64,000 nucleotides of DNA from Oscillospiraceae bacterium (GTDB taxonomy: Bacteria; Bacillota; Clostridia; UMGS1840): positions 55,733-119,732 of the forward strand of contig SVKD01000002.1 in NCBI GenBank assembly GCA_015068645.1, read 5' to 3'. The stretch's first letter is position 1, and every line of letters begins with the position of its first letter. The notes under the pieces were generated by a model, which saw nothing but the letters and a program-made list of their open reading frames with translations, searched no databases and was not told where the DNA came from. Shown here in pieces: positions 32,891 through 53,465 of the stretch. The translations under genes were made by a program, and so were the position numbers.

Positions 32891-33139
32891 TTATAAATTA
32901 TGATTTCTCGTATATTTTCGTAACGATTCAATTTTTTCTAATTTCAAAGCGTAATTTTTATTGCGGGGACACTGGGTATGAACACATTCGTTGCAATCAT
33001 GTTTTCCACGTAATTCAAAGCAACAACACATATAATTACATTCATCGCAACAGCACTCATTTCCGTTTTCACCATTACCGGGACAGTCTTTTCCGCCATT
33101 TCCTGGAATCAGTTCTATTCCTGTAATATCAATAATCAT
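32891..33139 (-). CDS. 82-aa cysteine-rich hypothetical protein
   Basis: MIIDITGIELIPGNGGKDCPGNG...ECCCDECNYMCCC...; 11 Cys; AGGGGG RBS. Confidence 0.65.
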   Translation of the reverse strand: MIIDITGIELIPGNGGKDCPGNGENGNECCCDECNYMCCCFELRGKHDCNECVHTQCPRNKNYALKLEKIESLRKYTRNHNL

Positions 33140-33156
33140 AGATTTTCCCCCTATAA

Positions 33157-33306
33157 TAAAAAAGTGTGCCTTCAACCGAAGACACACCGAAAAAGTATTA
33201 TCCTCGATTGTTGCGACACAATCCATACCCCAACGGATAAGAAATAGAGGAAATACCTTTTACCAAGAGTATTTCCATTGGGGTACAATATATAGGATTA
33301 TGTCGC
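33157..33306 (-). ncRNA. Candidate structured leader RNA or sRNA ending in an intrinsic terminator
   Basis: Nested stems 33211-33224/33295-33308, 33226-33237/33274-33285 and 33249-33257/33267-33276; terminator 33164-33187 with U tract. Confidence 0.5.
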
Positions 33307-33409: not shown

Positions 33410-33449
33410 AAAAAGACGAAATTCTTTGAAAAAGAACTTCGTCTTTTTT
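33410..33449. terminator. Third copy of the AAAAGACGAAATTCT terminator
   Basis: AAAAGACGAAATTCT-ttgaaaa-AGAACTTCGTCTTTT. Confidence 0.75.
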
Positions 33450-33809: not shown

Positions 33810-36800
33810 TTAGAAAGAAACTTTACCTTCAAAGGATTTCACCGCCGGTCCAGTCATTTGAATAGTTGAATCTGTGTAACGGATTTTTAAATCTCCGCCG
33901 GGGAGCTTCACGGTGATATCGGTATCTTTTTCACAGTGACCGTTTAAGATTGCTGCAACAGCTGCTGCGCAAGCACCGGTACCGCAAGCTAAGGTTTCGC
34001 CGATACCACGTTCCCAAACACGCATTTTCAGGGTGTTTTTATCAATCACAGTAACAAATTCCACGTTTACCCGATCGGGGAACATGGGATGATATTCCAG
34101 TTCGGGACCAATTTTTTCTAAGTTTACGGTGTCTAAGTTTTCAGTGAATACTACTGCGTGAGGATTGCCAACTGCTAAGCAGGTTACGTTAAAGGTTTCG
34201 TCTGCAACACTGATGGGTTCGTTAATCACCGGTTCTTTGTCGGAAACCACGGGAACCAGTTCGGGTTTGGTTTCTGCCTTGCCCATATCTACCTGTGCTG
34301 CAACTACTTCGCCCTCCATGGTGTAAACCTTCAGCTTTTTCACACCGCTTAAGGTTTCAATTTCCATATCTTCACGGGGAACAATGCCCTTGTCATACAG
34401 GTATTTACCCACGCAACGGATAGCGTTTCCGCCCATTCTGCCCTCGGTGCCATCTGCATTGAAGATTCTCATTTTCGCATCAGCAATTTTGGAAGCTTCA
34501 ATGACCACCGCACCGTCTGCACCGATGCCAAAGTGACGGTCGGAAAGACGGATTGCCAGTGCTTCGGGGTTATCAATCTGCTTGTCTAAGCAATCAAAAT
34601 AGATATAATCGTTGCCCAAGCTCTGCATTTTGGTAAATTCCACAGTCACTTTATCTTCGCGCATATTGTTGATATCCACGATTTCGATGCTTTGTTCAGA
34701 GTATTTACCTTTCATAGAGTTGATAACAGCGTTTGCAGTGTCAATAGAGGTGAAGCAGGGAACGCTTCTTTCTACCGCTTTTCTTCTGATTTTTACGCTG
34801 TCACGTTCGGGCAGTCTACCTTTTGCGGAAGTGGAAACTACAAAGTTTACTTTACCGCTTTCAATCAAGGTTAGAGTGTTGTTTTCTGCATTTTCGTGAA
34901 TTTTATCCACGGGGATAACAGGAAGACCTGCATCGGAGAGCACTTTTGCGGTGCCGTGAGTGGAATATAAGGTGAATCCTAAATCGTGGAATCCTTTTGC
35001 CACGCCGTAAATTTCCGCTTTGTCGGAATTTCTTACGGAAATGAACACACCGCCTTTTTTATGGAGCTGATAGCCGGCTCCGATTAAGCCTTTATACAGG
35101 GCTTCTTCCAAGTTTGCACCGATACCTAAAACTTCCCCGGTGGATTTCATTTCAGGCCCTAAGTGAATGTCTACCCCTAAGAGTTTGGCAAAGGAGAACA
35201 CAGGCACTTTGACTGCCACATAGGGAGAATTTCTGTAAAGACCGGTGCCGTAACCCATATCTTTTAATTTTTCGCCCAACATTGCACGGGTTGCCAAGTC
35301 AATCATAGGCACCTTGGTTACCTTGCTGATGTAGGGAACAGTTCTGGAAGATCTGGGATTTACTTCGATGACATATAATTCGTTATCATACACCAGATAC
35401 TGGATATTTACCAGACCTTTGGTGTTTAAGGCAACGGCTAATTTCTTGGTAGCATCAATGATTTTTTGAATCATGGGAACATCTAAGTTAAACGCAGGAT
35501 ATACGGCGATAGAGTCACCGGAGTGTACCCCTGCACGTTCAATATGTTCCATAATACCGGGGATTAAAATGTCTTCCCCGTCGGAAATGGCGTCAACTTC
35601 AATTTCAGTACCCATTAAATATTTGTCAATCAAAATGGGGTTTTCGTCCAGACCGTGCAAAATAATCTTCATATATTCCTTGGTGTCGTTATCGTTCCAA
35701 GCAATAATCATATTCTGACCGCCCAATACATAAGACGGACGAATCAGCACGGGATAACCGATACGGTTTGCAGTTTCCAATGCTTCTTCTTCGGTTAACA
35801 CGGTAAAGCCCTGAGGACGTTTGATGTTGAGTCTTTCAAGTAAATCGTCAAAACGTTCTCTGTCTTCCGCCATATCAATGCTGTCTGCACTGGTACCCAA
35901 GATTCTTACCCCGTTTTCCTGGAGGAAGTTGGTCAGTTTAATGGCAGTACCGCCACCAAATGCAACCACCACGCCGTAGGGTTTTTCGGTGTGAATCACG
36001 TTCATCACGTCTTCGGGGTTTAAGGGTTCAAAATACAGACGGTTTGCAGTGTCAAAGTCGGTGGAAACGGTTTCGGGGTTATTGTTGACGATAACCACTT
36101 CGTAACCTGCTTCCTGGAGCGCCCATACACAGTGTACGGATGCATAGTCAAACTCAATCCCCTGACCGATACGGATCGGACCGGAACCGAATACGATAAT
36201 GGTCTTTTTGTCGGTGGGATTGTTATCAATAAATTCTCTTGCTTCGTTGGCTTCTTCATAGGAAGAATAGAAGTAGGGGGTCTGTGCATCAAATTCCCCT
36301 GCACAGGTGTCTACCATCTTATAGGAAGCATAGATTTTTTCAGGAACTTTCTGATTGGATAAGTTTTCAATCACCTTGTCCAAAAAGCCCATTTTCTTCG
36401 CTTCTAAGTGAAGTTCTTTGGTTAAGGGTTCTTCTTTCAAGCGACATTCCATCTTGTAAAGATTATAGAGCTTGGATAAGAACCAACGGTCAATCTTGGT
36501 GATATCATAGATGGTGTCGATAGAAACGCCACGGGTGATAGCTTCATACACCACGAAAATTCTTTCGTCGTTGCACTGATAAAGTTTTTCGTTAATCACC
36601 TCATCGGATAAGCCAACCAAGTCTTTATGGCGCATAGAATCCTTGGAAATTTCTGCTCCGCGGACTGCTTTCATAATGGCTTCTTCAAAGGTGGCACCGA
36701 TTGCCATAACTTCCCCGGTAGCCTTCATCTGAGTGCCTAAATCACGTTTTGCATACACAAATTTATCGAAGGGGAATTTGGGGAATTTTACTACCACATA

Positions 36801-37853
36801 GTCAATGGCAGGTTCAAAACAAGCATAGGTTTTGCCGGTTACTGCATTTAAAATTTCGTCCAGCTGATAGCCGATTGCAATTTTTGCCGCAACTTTTGCA
36901 ATGGGATAACCGGTTGCTTTGGATGCAAGTGCAGAAGAACGGGAAACTCTGGGGTTTACCTCGATAACCGCATATTCAAAACTGTTGGGATTTAATGCGA
37001 ACTGACAGTTACAACCGCCTTCGATTTTTAATTCGTTCAAAATGTCAAGCGCTGCACGTCTTAACATGGAATATTCGTAGTCAGACAGAGAAACCGCAGG
37101 TGCGATAACAATGGAGTCACCGGTATGCACACCAACAGGGTCTAAGTTTTCCATACTGCAGACGGTGATGGAATTGCCTTTGCTGTCACGAATTACTTCA
37201 AATTCGATTTCCTTCCAGCCGGACACACATTTTTCCACCAAAACCTGAGTAATGGGAGAAAGACGCAGACCGTTGGTGGTAATCTCAATCATTTCTTCTT
37301 CGTTATTTACAATACCGCCGCCGGTACCGCCTAAGGTAAATGCGGGACGGATAATCAACGGATAGCCGATGGAATGTGCAAAATCCAGGGCGTCTTCCAA
37401 AGTGTTTACAACCTTGGAGGGGATAACGGGCTGGTTGATTTTTTCCATCATATCCTTAAACATCTGACGGTCTTCTGCCTTGTCGATGGTTTCAGGATTT
37501 GCGCCCAATAATTTTACGTTATGCTTGTCCAAAAAGCCTTCTTTTGCCAGCTGCATAGACAGGGTTAAGCCTGTCTGACCGCCTAAGGTTGAGAGTAAGC
37601 TATCCGGCTTTTCTTTTTCGATAATTCTTTTGATAACGGGCAGAGTTAAGGGTTCAATGTAGATTTTATCAGCCATTTTGCTGTCGGTCATAATGGTTGC
37701 AGGGTTGGAGTTTACCAAAACAACTTCCAGACCGTCTTCTTTTAAAGCACGACAAGCCTGGGTGCCTGCATAGTCAAACTCTGCTGCCTGACCAATGACA
37801 ATGGGGCCGGAACCGATGACTAAAACTTTTTTGATTTCTTTATTTAACGGCAT
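33810..37853 (-). CDS. carB: Carbamoyl-phosphate synthetase large subunit fused to a C-terminal DapF-like domain
   Basis: GSGPIVIGQAAEFDYAG, duplicated ATP-grasp halves, MGS domain; then KMQSLGND, FNADG, GNPH, ERG and LACGTG DapF motifs in one reading frame. Confidence 0.93.
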   Translation of the reverse strand: MPLNKEIKKVLVIGSGPIVIGQAAEFDYAGTQACRALKEDGLEVVLVNSNPATIMTDSKMADKIYIEPLTLPVIKRIIEKEKPDSLLSTLGGQTGLTLSMQLAKEGFLDKHNVKLLGANPETIDKAEDRQMFKDMMEKINQPVIPSKVVNTLEDALDFAHSIGYPLIIRPAFTLGGTGGGIVNNEEEMIEITTNGLRLSPITQVLVEKCVSGWKEIEFEVIRDSKGNSITVCSMENLDPVGVHTGDSIVIAPAVSLSDYEYSMLRRAALDILNELKIEGGCNCQFALNPNSFEYAVIEVNPRVSRSSALASKATGYPIAKVAAKIAIGYQLDEILNAVTGKTYACFEPAIDYVVVKFPKFPFDKFVYAKRDLGTQMKATGEVMAIGATFEEAIMKAVRGAEISKDSMRHKDLVGLSDEVINEKLYQCNDERIFVVYEAITRGVSIDTIYDITKIDRWFLSKLYNLYKMECRLKEEPLTKELHLEAKKMGFLDKVIENLSNQKVPEKIYASYKMVDTCAGEFDAQTPYFYSSYEEANEAREFIDNNPTDKKTIIVFGSGPIRIGQGIEFDYASVHCVWALQEAGYEVVIVNNNPETVSTDFDTANRLYFEPLNPEDVMNVIHTEKPYGVVVAFGGGTAIKLTNFLQENGVRILGTSADSIDMAEDRERFDDLLERLNIKRPQGFTVLTEEEALETANRIGYPVLIRPSYVLGGQNMIIAWNDNDTKEYMKIILHGLDENPILIDKYLMGTEIEVDAISDGEDILIPGIMEHIERAGVHSGDSIAVYPAFNLDVPMIQKIIDATKKLAVALNTKGLVNIQYLVYDNELYVIEVNPRSSRTVPYISKVTKVPMIDLATRAMLGEKLKDMGYGTGLYRNSPYVAVKVPVFSFAKLLGVDIHLGPEMKSTGEVLGIGANLEEALYKGLIGAGYQLHKKGGVFISVRNSDKAEIYGVAKGFHDLGFTLYSTHGTAKVLSDAGLPVIPVDKIHENAENNTLTLIESGKVNFVVSTSAKGRLPERDSVKIRRKAVERSVPCFTSIDTANAVINSMKGKYSEQSIEIVDINNMREDKVTVEFTKMQSLGNDYIYFDCLDKQIDNPEALAIRLSDRHFGIGADGAVVIEASKIADAKMRIFNADGTEGRMGGNAIRCVGKYLYDKGIVPREDMEIETLSGVKKLKVYTMEGEVVAAQVDMGKAETKPELVPVVSDKEPVINEPISVADETFNVTCLAVGNPHAVVFTENLDTVNLEKIGPELEYHPMFPDRVNVEFVTVIDKNTLKMRVWERGIGETLACGTGACAAAVAAILNGHCEKDTDITVKLPGGDLKIRYTDSTIQMTGPAVKSFEGKVSF

Positions 37854-38910
37854 CTTTTCTATCCTCCATCATCTTTGTAAATCTGCCCACCAAAAATCCG
37901 GGATTCATGGGCTCGGAAAAGCTTTCAATGTTAAACTGCACGGAAAATGCAGGAATGTTGGCATAGTCAATTCCCTCAACCGTGCCATCGTTTACATTAC
38001 GATACGAAACTTTACCAAAAGCTTCCACAGAATCGTTTACCACCTGGTAGCTGTGATTCTGAGAGGAAATGTAAACCTTGCCGGTGGTTTCATTGCGAAC
38101 GGGAACAGATGCACCACGGTGGCCGAATTTCAGTTTTTCAATTTTTGCACCCTGAGACAGCGCCAACAGCTGGTGTCCCAAACCAATTCCCAGAGTGGGA
38201 ATGTCTTTTAACTGACGGATTTCGGTAATCACATCGGTTAAGGTAGTGGGGTCCCCGGGTCCGCCGGATAAAATCACACCGTCGGGCTTTAATGCGAGAA
38301 TTTCTTCTGCCTGAGTGTTGTAGGGAACCTTGGTCACATCACAGCCTGCATCTAAAAATGCTTTTGCCATATTGTTGTTGCAACCAAAATCCCACATGAC
38401 CACATTGTATTTGCCTTCTTTTGCAGGAATGGTTTCCTTTTCGGAAACGGATACGGATTTTACCGCATCCACAATTTTATAACTTGCAATATCGTCAGTA
38501 AAATCAGGGGTAAAGGAAATTTTTGCGTTCATAGTGCCGGCGTCTCTTACCATTTTGGTCAGCTTTCTGGTATCAATGCCGTAAATACCGGGGATGTCTT
38601 TTTCCTTTAAAAAAGTGTCAAGATCACCCTCCAAACGCCAGTTGGACGGTGCCTGACACCAATCTTTCACAATATAACCAAAACAAGACGCTTTTTTGCC
38701 TGCCATTTCTTCTGCGATGGTACCGTGACAACCCATTTCGGGGAAAGTGGAAATCACAAGCTGACCGAAATTCGCAGGGTCGGTCAGAGTATCCATATAA
38801 CCAAGCATATTGGTGGAAAACACAAGTTCGCCTACCGCTTCACGGTAAGCGCCAAAGCTTTTTCCACGAAAAACTGTTTTGTTTTCCAGAATCAAGTACA
38901 TCTCTTTCAT
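37840..38910 (-). CDS. carA: Carbamoyl-phosphate synthetase small subunit with a degenerate glutaminase site
   Basis: GELVFST.M.GY..TLTDP, GIDTRKLT, GPGDP; GIGLGHQ and QFNIE in place of GICLGHQ and QFHPE. Confidence 0.92.
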   Translation of the reverse strand: MKEMYLILENKTVFRGKSFGAYREAVGELVFSTNMLGYMDTLTDPANFGQLVISTFPEMGCHGTIAEEMAGKKASCFGYIVKDWCQAPSNWRLEGDLDTFLKEKDIPGIYGIDTRKLTKMVRDAGTMNAKISFTPDFTDDIASYKIVDAVKSVSVSEKETIPAKEGKYNVVMWDFGCNNNMAKAFLDAGCDVTKVPYNTQAEEILALKPDGVILSGGPGDPTTLTDVITEIRQLKDIPTLGIGLGHQLLALSQGAKIEKLKFGHRGASVPVRNETTGKVYISSQNHSYQVVNDSVEAFGKVSYRNVNDGTVEGIDYANIPAFSVQFNIESFSEPMNPGFLVGRFTKMMEDRKDAVK

Positions 38911-39229
38911 ATGAGCGAAAACTTCCTTTCTGATTGTGTGTATCGTAGCCAAAAATCAACGATTTTAAGCGGTTTTTTCTAAAAATGGGTAAAATTTTTT
39001 CCGAAATCACAAGGGATTTCGGTTTTTTTAGAAAAGCAGATGCTATTCTTTTCGAAATTCAGGAGAAATTTCTTTCTATTTATTGTATCATTTCTGACGA
39101 TAATTGTCAATGATTTTTTCTTGGTTTTTTTCGTATATTTCTACAATTTTTCGGGATTGGAAAATCAAAAAATTTCCTTGAAAAACCGTAAGGATTCTAA
39201 AGATAAAATCCTTACGGTTTTTTGCTTAA

Positions 39230-39496: not shown

Positions 39497-40201
39497 CTAT
39501 TTCACCAGAGTACCGATAGTTTCGCCGGTGATGGCCTTAATAATATTTTCCGGCTGCTGCAATCCAAACACGTGAATGGGAATGTTATTATCCATACACA
39601 GAGAAGTTGCGGTGGAATCCATAACACCTAAACCACGGTTTAACACATCGATGTAGGAAATGTTGTCGAATTTTTTTGCATCGGGATTTTTTGCGGGGTC
39701 GGAATCGTAAACAGCGTCCACTTTTTTCGCGAGCAGGATTACGTCTGCACTGATTTCAGCAGCACGAAGAGCTGCAGCAGTGTCGGTGGAGAAGTAGGGG
39801 TTACCGGTTCCGCAACCAAAAATTACAACTCTGCCTTTGTCTAAATGACGTTCTGCTCTGCCACGGATATAGGGTTCTGCAATCTGACGCATATCAATGG
39901 CAGTCTGCACTCTTGCCTGAACGCCTAATGCTTCCAGGGAATCTGCAATTGCCAGAGAGTTGATGGCAGTTGCCAACATACCCATATGGTCTGCACGGGT
40001 TCTGTCCATATTTTCGCCGGTTCTTCCTCTCCAGAAGTTACCGCCGCCTACTACGATAGCAACCTGAACGCCCATCGATACACATTTTTTTACCTGTTTT
40101 CCGATATCTGAAATCACATTAAAGTCTAAACCAAAGCCGTTAGCCCCTGCCAACGCTTCGCCACTAATTTTTAACAATACTCTTTTATAAATCGGTTGCA
40201 T
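39497..40201 (-). CDS. pyrH: UMP kinase
   Basis: [49 protein letters not shown]. Confidence 0.96.
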
Positions 40202-40343
40202 TTTGTATGCTCCTCTCTCTATATAAAACACATCTCTGTTTTCTTTTCCACTTTCAACTTGTCCTCCCAACCTTTGAGAGAACCGCCGCCGAAGGCGGGA
40301 AAAACACCCATTGGGTGCCGGAAAAACAGCTAATAGCTGCCGT

Positions 40344-40382
40344 AAAAATGGCAAGCATCAAAGGATTGTGCTTGCCATTTTT
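40344..40382 (-). terminator. Terminator after tsf
   Basis: AAAAATGGCAAGCA...TGCTTGCCATTTTT. Confidence 0.8.
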
Positions 40383-40393
40383 GAAATCGTTAA

Positions 40394-41281
40394 TTATTTA
40401 GACATATTTGCAACTTCTTCTGCAAAGTTGTCAACTTTCTTTTCTAAGCCTTCGCCTTTTTCAAAACGAACAAATTTCACCAGTTTTACGCCTTTGGAAG
40501 CTAAATACTGTTCCACGGTTTTGTCGGAATCTTTCACGAATTCCTGCTGGTTTAAGCAGTTTAAGGTGTAGAATTTAGAAATTCTGCCCATTACCATTTT
40601 TTCGATAATCTGGTCGGGTTTCCCTGCAGATTTGGGATCGTTTTTAATCTGTTCGATTAAGATTTTCTTTTCTTTTTCCACATCTTCTGCGGGAACGGTA
40701 GATTTATCTAAATAGGTGGGGTTGATAGCTGCAATCTGCATAGCTGCATCACGAGCTGCTTCGTAAGCGTCGCCGTCTAAAGCGTTTTCAGCCTGAACCA
40801 TAACACCGATTCTGCCGCCGCCATGGATATAGGTAGCAACAGCACCTTCGTATCTTTCAAATCTTCTGATGGTCATGTTTTCGCCGATGGTTAAGATTTT
40901 GTCTCTTAACATTTCTTCAACGCTCATACCGGAATCTTTGTAAGCCAATTTTAATAAAGCGTCAACATCTGCGGGATTTTCTTTTGCAACGATTTCAGCC
41001 AAATCTTTTACGAAGGTCTGGAAATCAGCATTTTTACCAACGAAGTCGGTTTCGGAGTTAACTTCGATGATAACACCAACGCCATCGCAGGTGAAATCGG
41101 AAACGATACCTTCCGCAGCAATTCTGCCTGCTTTTTTTGCAGCAGCTGCTAAACCTTTTTCTCTTAAAAATTCAACTGCTTTGTCCATATCGCCATTGGT
41201 TTCGGATAATGCTTTTTTACAGTCCATCATACCGCAACCGGTGATTTCTCTTAATTCTTTAACCATCTGAGGTGTAACCAT
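40394..41281 (-). CDS. tsf: Elongation factor Ts
   Basis: VKELREITGCGMMDCKKAL, EVNSETDFV, YIHGGGRIGV, FVRFEKGEG. Confidence 0.97.
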   Translation of the reverse strand: MVTPQMVKELREITGCGMMDCKKALSETNGDMDKAVEFLREKGLAAAAKKAGRIAAEGIVSDFTCDGVGVIIEVNSETDFVGKNADFQTFVKDLAEIVAKENPADVDALLKLAYKDSGMSVEEMLRDKILTIGENMTIRRFERYEGAVATYIHGGGRIGVMVQAENALDGDAYEAARDAAMQIAAINPTYLDKSTVPAEDVEKEKKILIEQIKNDPKSAGKPDQIIEKMVMGRISKFYTLNCLNQQEFVKDSDKTVEQYLASKGVKLVKFVRFEKGEGLEKKVDNFAEEVANMSK

Positions 41282-41360
41282 AATAAAATTCTCCTTTTCT
41301 TTGTCATATGGAAAATAGGCAAGCGCAAGGTTGCCTATTTTCTTAAAAATCAATTTCTAA

Positions 41361-42092
41361 TTATTCAGCTGCAGCTTCGTCGGTTTCTTCTTCCATTGCC
41401 TGAGCTGCGCCTTCTCTGCCTTCGATCATAGCGTTTGCCATGGTTTCAGCAATCAGTTTAACAGCGCGGATCGCATCGTCGTTACCGGGGATTACATAAT
41501 CCACTTCATCGGGATCACAGTTGGTATCTACGATTGCAACAACGGGGATATGCAGTTTCTTAGCTTCTAAGATTGCATTTCTTTCTTTTCTGGGGTCAAC
41601 AACAAACAGAACGCTGGGGAGCTTTTTCATGTTTTTGATACCGCCCAGGTATTTTTCTAATTTTTCTCTTTCTAAGTTTAATTTGATAACTTCTTTTTTG
41701 GGAAGTAAATCAAAGGTACCGTCTTCTTCCATTTTGTTTAACTGGAAGAGTCTGTCAATTCTTTTACGGATGGTTTTGAAGTTGGTTAACATACCGCCTA
41801 ACCATCTTGCGTTTACATAGTACATACCAATTCTTTCAGCTTCTGCTTTTACAGCGTCTGCAGCCTGTTTTTTGGTACCAACAAACAGGATTTCACCGCC
41901 CTGAGCTGCGATATCTCTAACAAAGTAGTAAGCTTCTTCTACTTTTTTCAGAGTTTTCTGCAGGTCGATGATGTAGATTCCGTTTCTTTCGGTGAAGATG
42001 TAGGGAGCCATTTTGGGGTTCCATCTTCTGGTCTGATGACCGAAGTGAACGCCGGCTTCCAATAACTGTTTCATGGAGATTACGTTGCTCAT
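41361..42092 (-). CDS. rpsB: 30S ribosomal protein S2
   Basis: [46 protein letters not shown]. Confidence 0.98.
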
Positions 42093-52224: not shown

Positions 52225-52830
52225 TCATTTTGTTGGAAAATTGATAAAATTTTCAAGTAGCTTCAGTCCTGTTTTTCCGCTTTTTTCGGGGTGAAACTGG
52301 GTCAAAAACACGTTTTCTCTCTGATATGCACAGTCAAAGGGAATACCGTATTCCGAAGTGGCAATCACTTCCTCACGGTTTTTTGCCTCTAAATAGTAGC
52401 TATGCACAAAATAAAAATAATCGTCAGGCAAGTCGCAAAATAAGGGACTTTCTTTGTATTCAATTCGGTTCCAGCCAATCTGAGGCACTTTTTTGCAGAT
52501 GTCCACGGGAAATTTTTTGATTTCACCGGGAAAAATGCCAAGACCGGGTAAATTACCTTCTTCGGATGTTTCAAAACACATCTGTAACCCCACGCAGATG
52601 CCCAAAAAAGGTGTTTTTTTCTCAATCACTTCGTACACGGTTTCAATGAGGCCTGATTTTCTGATGCTTCCCATAGCATCATCAAAATGACCCACACCGG
52701 GCAGAATCACGTGGTCTGCAGAACGGATCATATTTTTGTCAGAGGTAATAGATACCTCATCGGTAAACTGTTTTAAGGCGTTGGAAACCCCGAACAGATT
52801 CCCTGCGCCGTAGTCAATAATCGCTATCAT
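52225..52830 (-). CDS. hisH: Imidazole glycerol phosphate synthase glutaminase subunit
   Basis: IIDYGAGN, LPGVG, GICVGLQ, YFVHSY, QFHPEKSG (triad intact). Confidence 0.95.
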   Translation of the reverse strand: MIAIIDYGAGNLFGVSNALKQFTDEVSITSDKNMIRSADHVILPGVGHFDDAMGSIRKSGLIETVYEVIEKKTPFLGICVGLQMCFETSEEGNLPGLGIFPGEIKKFPVDICKKVPQIGWNRIEYKESPLFCDLPDDYFYFVHSYYLEAKNREEVIATSEYGIPFDCAYQRENVFLTQFHPEKSGKTGLKLLENFINFPTK

Positions 52831-53465
52831 TATTCAATAACCGCCTTCACTTTTTCAATCATGGGCAGAATCTGCTTTTTCATTTTCATACTTACTTTAT
52901 TGACAATCAGACGTGCAGACAGCTGACATACTTCTTCCAACACGCCAAGACCGTTTTCTTCTAAGGTTTTGCCCGATTCCACAATATCCACAATCACATC
53001 GGATAAGCCCACAATGGGAGCTAATTCAATAGAACCGTTTAATTTGATGATGTCGGGAGACTGTTTTTTCACATCTTTAAAATAAGCTCTTGCAATATTG
53101 GGATACTTGGTAGCAACCTTTAGGGATGACACACGGCTGTTTAATTTTTCTCTTGCCGATTCGGGTCCGCAGACACACATTCTGCACTTTCCAAAATTTA
53201 AATTTAATACTTCGTACAGACTTCTGCCTTCTTCCAAAATAGTGTCTTTGCCCACCACGCCGATATCGGCAGCGCCGTATTCCACATAACAGGGAACATC
53301 ACTTGCTTTTACCAAAATATATTTAACTTTACCGATTTCGTCAGTAAAAATCAACTTTCTGCCCTTGTCTTCCAGACAGGAAATATCGTAACCTGCTTTG
53401 CCGAAAATTTCGGCAGCATAGTCACCTAATCTGCCTTTTGCCAATGCAACGGTAATGTATTTCAA
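52830..53465 (-). CDS. hisG: ATP phosphoribosyltransferase, short form
   Basis: VALAKGRL, YVEYGAADIGVVGKD, VATKYP, GSIELAPIVGLSDVIVDIVESGKTL; TTG start. Confidence 0.95.
   Translation of the reverse strand: MKYITVALAKGRLGDYAAEIFGKAGYDISCLEDKGRKLIFTDEIGKVKYILVKASDVPCYVEYGAADIGVVGKDTILEEGRSLYEVLNLNFGKCRMCVCGPESAREKLNSRVSSLKVATKYPNIARAYFKDVKKQSPDIIKLNGSIELAPIVGLSDVIVDIVESGKTLEENGLGVLEEVCQLSARLIVNKVSMKMKKQILPMIEKVKAVIE

Follow-up and report, generated by a model that had tools for sequence, protein, structure and literature searches.

A conserved CarA with a disabled catalytic site suggests ammonia-dependent carbamoyl phosphate synthesis in gut Clostridia

The carA and carB genes of the window

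The stretch of DNA analyzed in this study (64,000 nucleotides from an Oscillospiraceae bacterium; contig SVKD01000002.1 of assembly GCA_015068645.1, positions 55,733 to 119,732 of the forward strand) is called the window in the following, and positions refer to it unless another contig is named. Its minus strand carries the genes for both subunits of carbamoyl-phosphate synthase (CPS), carA and carB, the latter extended by a dapF-like segment. The small subunit gene carA (37840..38907) encodes a protein of 355 amino acids in which the catalytic Cys and His of the class I glutaminase site are replaced. This had been pointed out in a preliminary description made from the sequence alone, and minus-strand reading confirmed both motifs, GIGLGHQ and QFNIE, with their exact codons, as well as the full-length frame without stop codon or frameshift. 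The longest carA open reading frame (ORF) extends from a TTG at 38952 (38952..37840), and the database homologs all begin at the ATG at 38907 (MKEMYL..., 355-356 amino acids).

Residues are numbered here as in E. coli CarA, based on a HMMER alignment to PDB 1c30_B and 1a9x_B (E 8e-68). At the position of the nucleophile Cys269, the window protein has Gly242 (GGT, 38182-38184), and the sequence His353-Pro354-Glu355 is replaced by Asn-Ile-Glu (AAC ATT GAA, 37924..37932), with Asn326 (AAC, 37930-37932) at 353, Ile (ATT, 37927-37929) at 354 and a retained Glu (GAA, 37924-37926) at 355. Where catalysis requires the triad Cys269-His353-Glu355, the window CarA has Gly, Asn and Glu. Both Cys269 and His353 are invariant in 138 aligned live-type CarAs, and Gly is found at 269 in all 23 sequences of the clade to which the window CarA belongs. 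The alignment also places Ala45 at Ser47 (38773..38775; TDPAN versus TDPSY), Ser267 at Asn294 (38107..38109; GHRGASVP) and Glu332 (37912..37914) at the tunnel-wall Gly359, which is invariant in live CarAs. Across the clade, 100 of the 137 columns that are at least 93% conserved in the 138 live-type CarAs are retained. Substitutions at conserved columns comprise Ser47 to Ala, Lys202 to Asn, Asn240 to Gly, Asn294 to Ser, Gly313 to Ser and Gly359 to Glu; Gly241, Gly243, Leu270, Gln273, Asn311 and His312 are conserved. Deep members of the clade show drift at position 47 (Ala, Thr or His), 353 (Asn, Gln, Ala or Arg), 354 (Ile or Pro) and 355 (Glu or Asp). In a separate part of the protein, residues 55-61 (38725-38745, minus strand), the genus has PEMGCHG where a PLIGNYG loop is conserved in live CarAs, which gives its CarA a new Cys-His pair.

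Domain order, curated cut-offs, adjacency to carB and fold all place the protein in the CarA family. An N-terminal small-chain domain (PF00988, 143.5 bits, cut-off 27) is followed by a glutamine amidotransferase (GATase) domain (PF00117, 125.1 bits, cut-off 22.8), and the NCBIfam models NF009475 (365 bits, cut-off 221) and TIGR01368 (346.1 bits, cut-off 307.35) both match. An AlphaFold2 (AF2) model built from a 26-sequence alignment reached moderate confidence (pLDDT 71, low around the altered loops) and was used for fold assignment only; Foldseek aligned it to E. coli CarA 1cs0_B with a TM score of 0.80 (E 3e-35) and to the N-terminal moiety of human CPS1 with a TM score of 0.75. Members of the same CarA cluster are named 'glutamine-hydrolyzing' in the NCBI annotation.

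The carA stop codon (37840-37842) and the carB start codon (ATG, 37851-37853) lie within a 14-nt overlap (37840..37853, minus strand), an arrangement indicative of translational coupling that had likewise been described before and is present in all ten genus loci that reach carB. The CarB core (residues 1-1071; 34641..37853, minus strand) contains both ATP-grasp halves, the oligomerization domain and the MGS-like allosteric domain according to Pfam, and the whole protein including the DapF-like domain (33810..37853, minus strand) matches NF003671 with 1503 bits and TIGR01369 with 1451 bits. Of 314 columns without variation in 15 CarBs that have a live partner, it retains 308, and its ratio of nonsynonymous to synonymous substitution rates (dN/dS) is 0.029. 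Judged from its sequence, CarB is an intact synthetase. One of the six changed invariant columns is Gln262, replaced by Ser (37068-37070). By eye and with E. coli numbering, the gate residues C232, A251 and A314 are kept, and Gln262 adjoins Arg265 at the tunnel wall, a residue changed in the E. coli perforation mutant aP360A/aH361A/bR265A.

Fixation, selection and recurrence of the altered CarA

Both substitutions are shared by the eleven species for which the genus has genomes; their CarAs show 86-98% protein identity and have G-[I/T]-G-L-G-H-Q and Q-F-N-I-E. Twelve metagenome protein clusters with 69-97% identity all carry Gly at 269 and have Asn, Gln, Ala or Arg at 353; in one of the twelve, Glu355 is changed to Asp. 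The next CarA relatives, at 56% identity or less, are canonical (GICLGHQ/QFHPE) and of the Ruminococcus/Oscillospiraceae type. Phylogenetically, the clade is monophyletic with full support, has a long stem of 0.47 changes per site and nests within the Clostridia CarAs as sister to the live CarAs of the Oscillospiraceae type. The genus is represented by metagenome-assembled genomes (MAGs) named 'Clostridia bacterium' from water buffalo colon, water deer cecum and rectum, roe deer rectum and similar ruminant gut or feces, in agreement with the rumen or gut habitat guessed in the preliminary description.

General caution over MAGs is the only basis for regarding carA as an assembly or sequencing error or as a decaying pseudogene, and the probability of either appears negligible. 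Contigs from independent fecal and bovine-gut metagenomes (runs X1, X4, X7, and X8) are identical to the window at both codons, the same state is fixed in the eleven species and recurs in homologs of 69% identity, the reading frame is open and the coupling to carB is conserved. In addition, pairwise dN/dS of carA after Nei-Gojobori among the eleven species is 0.081 for the whole gene at a dS of about 0.8, with 0.059 in the N-terminal and 0.072 in the GATase domain, values that are not those of a pseudogene. Assembly error and recent decay were ruled out on the grounds of the eleven-species fixation, dN/dS and the independent assemblies. Fixation in related genomes and MAGs and purifying selection, both named as checks in the preliminary description, are borne out by these data, and its proviso that close relatives might keep Cys and His did not come true.

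The loss of Cys269 is not confined to this genus. An even sample of 401 Clostridia species (399 scored, 270 with CarA) was surveyed by a codon-level pattern search, after which the matches were fetched; variants such as AIGLGHD are missed by this approach, so that the counts are lower bounds. Outside the genus, a Cys-less CarA was verified in at least 32 species, which belong to about 20 families and correspond to roughly a tenth of related species. The residue at 269 is mostly Gly, with Ser in four and Glu in one genus, and replacements at 353 and 355 are frequent too. About 25 of these species have no CarA besides the Cys-less copy, while five have a second CarA match; the Cys was confirmed in the second copy of three of them (G086, G249, and G334). 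All four Cys-less copies with examined flanks have their own carB directly downstream.

Tree reconstruction gave 13 state changes by parsimony, at least seven of which are forced by well-supported branches and represent independent losses. A single ancient family of inactive CarAs was ruled out by these changes and by live/dead sister pairs within genera. Over 24 independent Cys-less lineages, replacements were counted at position 269 (24 lineages), 353 (18), 47 (17, of which 10 to Ala), 244 (16, of which 15 to Asn), 360 (16), 240 (14), 359 (12, replaced or deleted), 294 (10, of which 7 to Ser) and 355 (10), compared with a median of 2 replacements per conserved column. Such a distribution would be expected of a subunit that loses its glutaminase function but remains useful in other respects, and the recurrence of the same replacements is a hint that adaptation, and not only drift, was at work.

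Three observations from the survey concern related or similar proteins. In a genus of a sister order (f2 g3; loci L017, L018, L020, L021, and L023 in genomes G016, G018, G019, G023, and G024), CarA has GIELGHQ together with an intact His-Pro-Glu; since the exchange of Cys for Glu needs three base changes, it looks selected and not accidental. Locus L070 (G334:C1:4003000-4019000) is a tandem of Cys-less carA, carB, live carA and carB. Its two CarA copies are sister sequences, which points to a recent duplication after which one copy lost the Cys, and the tandem offers a natural comparison of ammonia-type with glutamine-type CPS within a single organism. Finally, ORFs of about 200 amino acids with a GATase domain and the motif PILGIGLGHQ were found at L072 (G236:C98), L073 (G184:C82), and L074 (G046:C129). 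These were ruled out as CarA, having 27-28% identity over the GATase domain only, and may constitute another family of inactive class I amidotransferase subunits.

Genomic context of the operon

The window is part of a 1.76-Mb MAG with a completeness of 97.3%. The search for a second intact carA, which the preliminary description had suggested, yielded none: the genome has a single PF00988 match, and only one carA is present in each of the eleven genus genomes. Matches to PF00117 in the genome are restricted to CarA and HisH, and no other candidate for a class I glutaminase partner was found by this search. HisH (52228..52833, minus strand; TIGR01855, 221 bits) served as internal control within the window and has GICVGLQ and FHPE with Cys, His and Glu intact, as stated before. 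Carbamate kinase was ruled out as an alternative source of carbamoyl phosphate, none being present in the genome (best match 27.6 bits, cut-off 358). Both consumers of this metabolite are encoded, namely ornithine transcarbamylase (OTCase, ArgF) and aspartate transcarbamylase (ATCase, PyrB).

Several other enzymes of this genome are of types that do without a glutaminase. PyrJ (DUF1846; G000:C13:40969-41964, outside the window, E 7e-178) was found, and neither a PyrG motif nor a PyrG glutaminase domain was detected in the genome. PyrJ is an ammonia-only CTP synthase (bioRxiv 10.1101/2024.09.24.614635). It is present in ten of the eleven genus genomes, the exception being G004 (94% complete). 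GuaA (G000:C2:134165-135181, outside the window) consists of the ATP-pyrophosphatase/dimerization half only (profile positions 196-512 of 512); the genome encodes neither a GATase domain nor a separate GATase subunit for GMP synthase, and a GuaA ORF of 510-530 amino acids is absent across the genus. A PurF-like amidophosphoribosyltransferase (G000:C1:40424-41848, outside the window) starts with MGGIFG and has Gly in place of the N-terminal nucleophile Cys1; it contains a DYHSHLGT motif and a Cys-rich tail (CKVCTYCWDGKECPGKCK) and scores 188 against a PurF cut-off of 350. NadE is the single-domain form (243 amino acids), and a meso-diaminopimelate dehydrogenase (Ddh; G000:C2:152749-153735, 457 bits) is encoded as well. 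The genome also contains a type III glutamine synthetase, so that HisH and protein synthesis can still be supplied with glutamine.

A similar association was seen among 41 relatives. ORFs of GuaA size and PyrG size with a GATase domain are missing from 20 of the 22 genomes with Cys-less CarA and present in all eleven with live CarA, and PyrJ was found in every examined PyrG-less genome with Cys-less CarA except G004. These genomes are phylogenetically non-independent, and the figures correspond to joint loss in about five lineages and its absence in two (G021 and G027).

The DapF-like domain fused to the C-terminus of CarB (33810..34640, minus strand; TIGR00652, 286 bits) is altered in a comparable manner. 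According to an alignment with B. anthracis DapF (2otn), the first catalytic Cys is replaced by Gly (34431-34433; GRMGGNAIRC versus GKSCGNGLRC) and the second is kept (33984-33986), leaving one of the two catalytic Cys residues that a DapF has. The Gly is fixed in nine of nine genus sequences, dN/dS of the domain is 0.070, and no DapF homolog besides the fused domain was found in the genome. CarB-DapF fusions of about 1346-1365 amino acids are widespread in Clostridia. They also occur together with live CarA in Oscillospiraceae, Lachnospiraceae, Eubacterium and Scatolibacter, and the fusion as a marker of inactive CarA was ruled out. The catalytic Cys of DapF is kept in L046-L050, replaced by Gly in L057 and L059, which have live CarA, and by Ser in L051; its loss is only partly coupled to that of the CarA Cys.

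Upstream of carA, a promoter-like sequence (39082..39110, minus strand; TTGACA-17-TACAAT with extended TG, 11 of 12 matches) lies about 175 nt from the ATG, and a terminator-like hairpin of 18 pairs with a T-run (33410..33448, minus strand) follows carB-dapF; both are consensus matches only. No Rfam match was obtained near the carA operon, sub-threshold ylbH and Thr-leader matches being located elsewhere. The genes rpsB-tsf-pyrH (39497-42092, minus strand) precede carA, separated by a 545-nt spacer that holds the promoter-like site of carA, and having pyrH nearby is a hint of a connection with pyrimidine metabolism. The carB-dapF terminator is closely followed by a Cys-rich ORF of 111 amino acids (32891-33226, minus strand; ...GNECCCDECNYMCCCFELRGKHDCNECVHTQCP...), which may represent a Cys-rich peptide, a metal-binding protein or a chance ORF.

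Nitrogen donor of the synthase and role of CarA

We consider it likely that carA and carB-dapF encode the only CPS of the cell, that the nitrogen donor of this enzyme is free NH3 and not glutamine, and that the altered CarA is an obligatory non-catalytic partner. The loss of glutaminase chemistry in CarA is close to certain, because Gly at the nucleophile position and Asn at that of the general base should permit neither formation nor hydrolysis of a glutamyl thioester. Ammonia is very probably the substrate of the CarA-CarB pair. CarB would phosphorylate bicarbonate, NH3 would attack the product to give carbamate, and phosphorylation of the latter would yield the carbamoyl phosphate that feeds ATCase for pyrimidines and OTCase for arginine. 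CarA, which appears to be co-translated with CarB and retains the CarA fold and most conserved positions, probably serves to stabilize or activate CarB; external NH3 may also enter along a path to which CarA contributes, the old pocket and the tunnel-wall loop 359-362 having been remodeled. The switch might belong to a broader turn of the genome toward biosynthesis from ammonia, in a gut habitat that is rich in ammonia and limited in energy and where bypassing glutamine synthetase would save one ATP per nitrogen. The CPS incapable of using glutamine and fed by NH3 that the preliminary description had proposed is supported in this way by the in silico checks.

The natural protein is 36% identical to E. 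coli CarA (TIGR01368; PDB 1jdb, 1cs0) along its entire length and resembles it in the two-domain architecture, in its coupled position directly upstream of carB and in Gly241, Gly243, Leu270, Gln273, Asn311 and Glu355. In contrast to canonical CarA, it is without the Cys and His, a state that is fixed across the genus and under selection, and Ser47, Lys202, Asn240, Asn294, Gly313, Pro354 and Gly359 are replaced too. It is altered at positions that were mutated in the laboratory: PDB 1c30/1c3o (C269S) and 1a9x (H353N) are E. coli mutants at the same two catalytic positions, and 1m6v is G359F. The E. coli CarA variants C269G/S and H353N reportedly abolish glutamine-dependent synthesis and leave NH3-dependent synthesis. 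Ammonia-dependent activity is also retained by E. coli CPS with blocked or perforated tunnels (PMC4655335).

A functional parallel is vertebrate CPS1 (EC 6.3.4.16; PDB 5dou, 5dot), which likewise retains a dead glutaminase-like module that is needed as part of the enzyme and which uses ammonia, as the window enzyme is predicted to do. Human CPS1 has Ser294 for the Cys and cannot use glutamine; with the former tunnel blocked, the probable route of external ammonia bypasses the old active site and follows the subunit interface (PMC4655335). In contrast to the single fused polypeptide of CPS1, two genes are present in the window, and the protein falls outside the metazoan CPS I/III clade, having originated independently within the Clostridia CarAs. 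It has lost both Cys and His and kept Leu270 and Gln273, and its CarB carries the C-terminal DapF-like domain, whereas CPS1 depends on N-acetylglutamate. The pair is best read as a probable bacterial analog of vertebrate CPS I that stands outside that group.

Among bacteria, genetic data for B. thetaiotaomicron point to an ammonium-dependent carbamoyl-phosphate route through CarB2 (BT3866; Liu et al. 2021, PMC8121099). In that species, Ddh and CarB2 form a high-ammonium set and DapLF and CarAB a low-ammonium set (PMC8121099). CarB2 is an orphan large subunit without CarA that exists alongside canonical CarAB, whereas here an inactive CarA is kept and no canonical CPS is present. The genome of the window has, like B. 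thetaiotaomicron, a Ddh, plus the inactivated DapF module, and the two low-ammonium activities of the B. thetaiotaomicron scheme share one operon in which both are disabled. PyrJ is another ammonia-only replacement of a glutamine-dependent step of nucleotide synthesis in Firmicutes; it differs in being an unrelated family that took the place of PyrG, while in the case of CarA the original subunit was disabled in place.

Some points weigh against an ammonia-dependent CPS. The Km of E. coli CPS for NH4+ is said to be very high, and an unmodified CarB might be a poor enzyme at gut ammonia levels. All genomes are MAGs, and at 97.3% completeness, a second carA could in principle reside in the missing part of the present one, although each of the eleven genus genomes shows a single copy. 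The evidence for transcription is weak, consisting of short metatranscriptome contigs with 90-93% identity on pieces of carA, and the deep metatranscriptome peaks fall on conserved carB stretches and are derived from other organisms. With its moderate confidence (pLDDT 71), the structure model is uninformative on tunnels. Furthermore, Gly241, Gly243, Leu270, Gln273 and Asn311, which we take to be glutamine-contacting or oxyanion residues, are kept here and in almost all of the 24 Cys-less lineages, so that there is room for glutamine binding and hence for a sensing role. A CarA that binds glutamine without hydrolyzing it could allosterically regulate an ammonia-fed CPS, which would refine rather than replace the ammonia-dependent reading. 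The E. coli C269S variant presumably still binds glutamine, PDB 1c3o being that complex, which would speak for such a sensor. The observation that vertebrate and frog CPS I lost the use of glutamine in part through the residue beside the Cys, i.e., the Leu270 position, points in the same direction (PMC4655335). However, Ser47, Asn240, Lys202 and Gly313 are replaced, the drift at 47, 353, 354 and 355 in deep clade members suggests relaxed constraint on the pocket, and the GxGLGHQ elbow may persist for folding alone, which makes a sensor rather unlikely.

It is also conceivable that CarA still delivers nitrogen, either by means of another nucleophile or a bound water acting on glutamine, asparagine or another amide, or through a docked ammonia-producing enzyme. 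The directional, convergent changes (Asp244 to Asn in 15 lineages, Ser47 to Ala in 10, and Asn294 to Ser in 7), the sister group with Glu at 269 and intact His-Pro-Glu, and the Cys-His pair (MGCHG) gained by the genus in the N-terminal domain could be read along these lines. Yet no Cys or Ser was gained at or beside 269 in the clade, the general base is lost too and its replacement is not conserved, HisH is the only other class I GATase of the genome, and other glutamine-dependent enzymes have been dropped by the same genome. The Cys of MGCHG, being absent from the deepest clade members P0011 and P0012, was ruled out as a replacement nucleophile. Altogether, a nitrogen-delivering CarA seems very improbable.

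A bolder form of the ammonia-dependent reading assumes that CarA is a rebuilt ammonia-intake subunit, whose old pocket and tunnel now admit NH3 with useful affinity, at the core of a glutamine-free module; we regard this as possible but doubtful. The recurrent changes Cys269 to Gly, Ser47 to Ala, Asp244 to Asn and Asn294 to Ser and the remodeling of loop 359-362, together with Gln262 to Ser in CarB, would then reflect the rebuilding. CarA-CarB, PyrJ, the GATase-less GuaA, the Cys-less PurF, an NH3-dependent NadE and Ddh would form a co-evolving module that saves the ATP of glutamine synthetase in ammonia-rich guts, and CarB would retain its inactive DapF domain for a structural or regulatory purpose.

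In the literature searched, no natural bacterial CarA that lacks the catalytic Cys was found to be described. According to a functional-genetics paper of 2021, every eubacterial CPS investigated up to then depends on glutamine, and a bacterial ammonium-dependent CPS is named there as a knowledge gap (PMC8121099). The locus described here and those of at least 32 other Clostridia species provide natural candidates for such an enzyme, being complete CPS operons in which the glutaminase appears to be disabled yet conserved. Compared with the preliminary description, it is new that the trait is recurrent and common in Clostridia, that several glutamine-dependent enzymes are replaced in the same genome and that the DapF domain has lost a Cys. 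The repeated independent losses amount to a natural mutational scan that separates CarA residues needed for glutaminase chemistry from those serving other roles of the subunit. If the ammonia-dependent reading is true, gut bacteria have many times undergone a change that parallels how vertebrate CPS I arose, and the annotation 'glutamine-hydrolyzing carbamoyl-phosphate synthase small subunit' would be functionally wrong for thousands of proteins. Metabolic models of rumen and gut Clostridia should in that case draw the nitrogen for arginine and pyrimidines from free ammonia. It has long been known that many rumen bacteria require ammonia, and an ammonia-dependent CPS would provide a molecular basis for this requirement.

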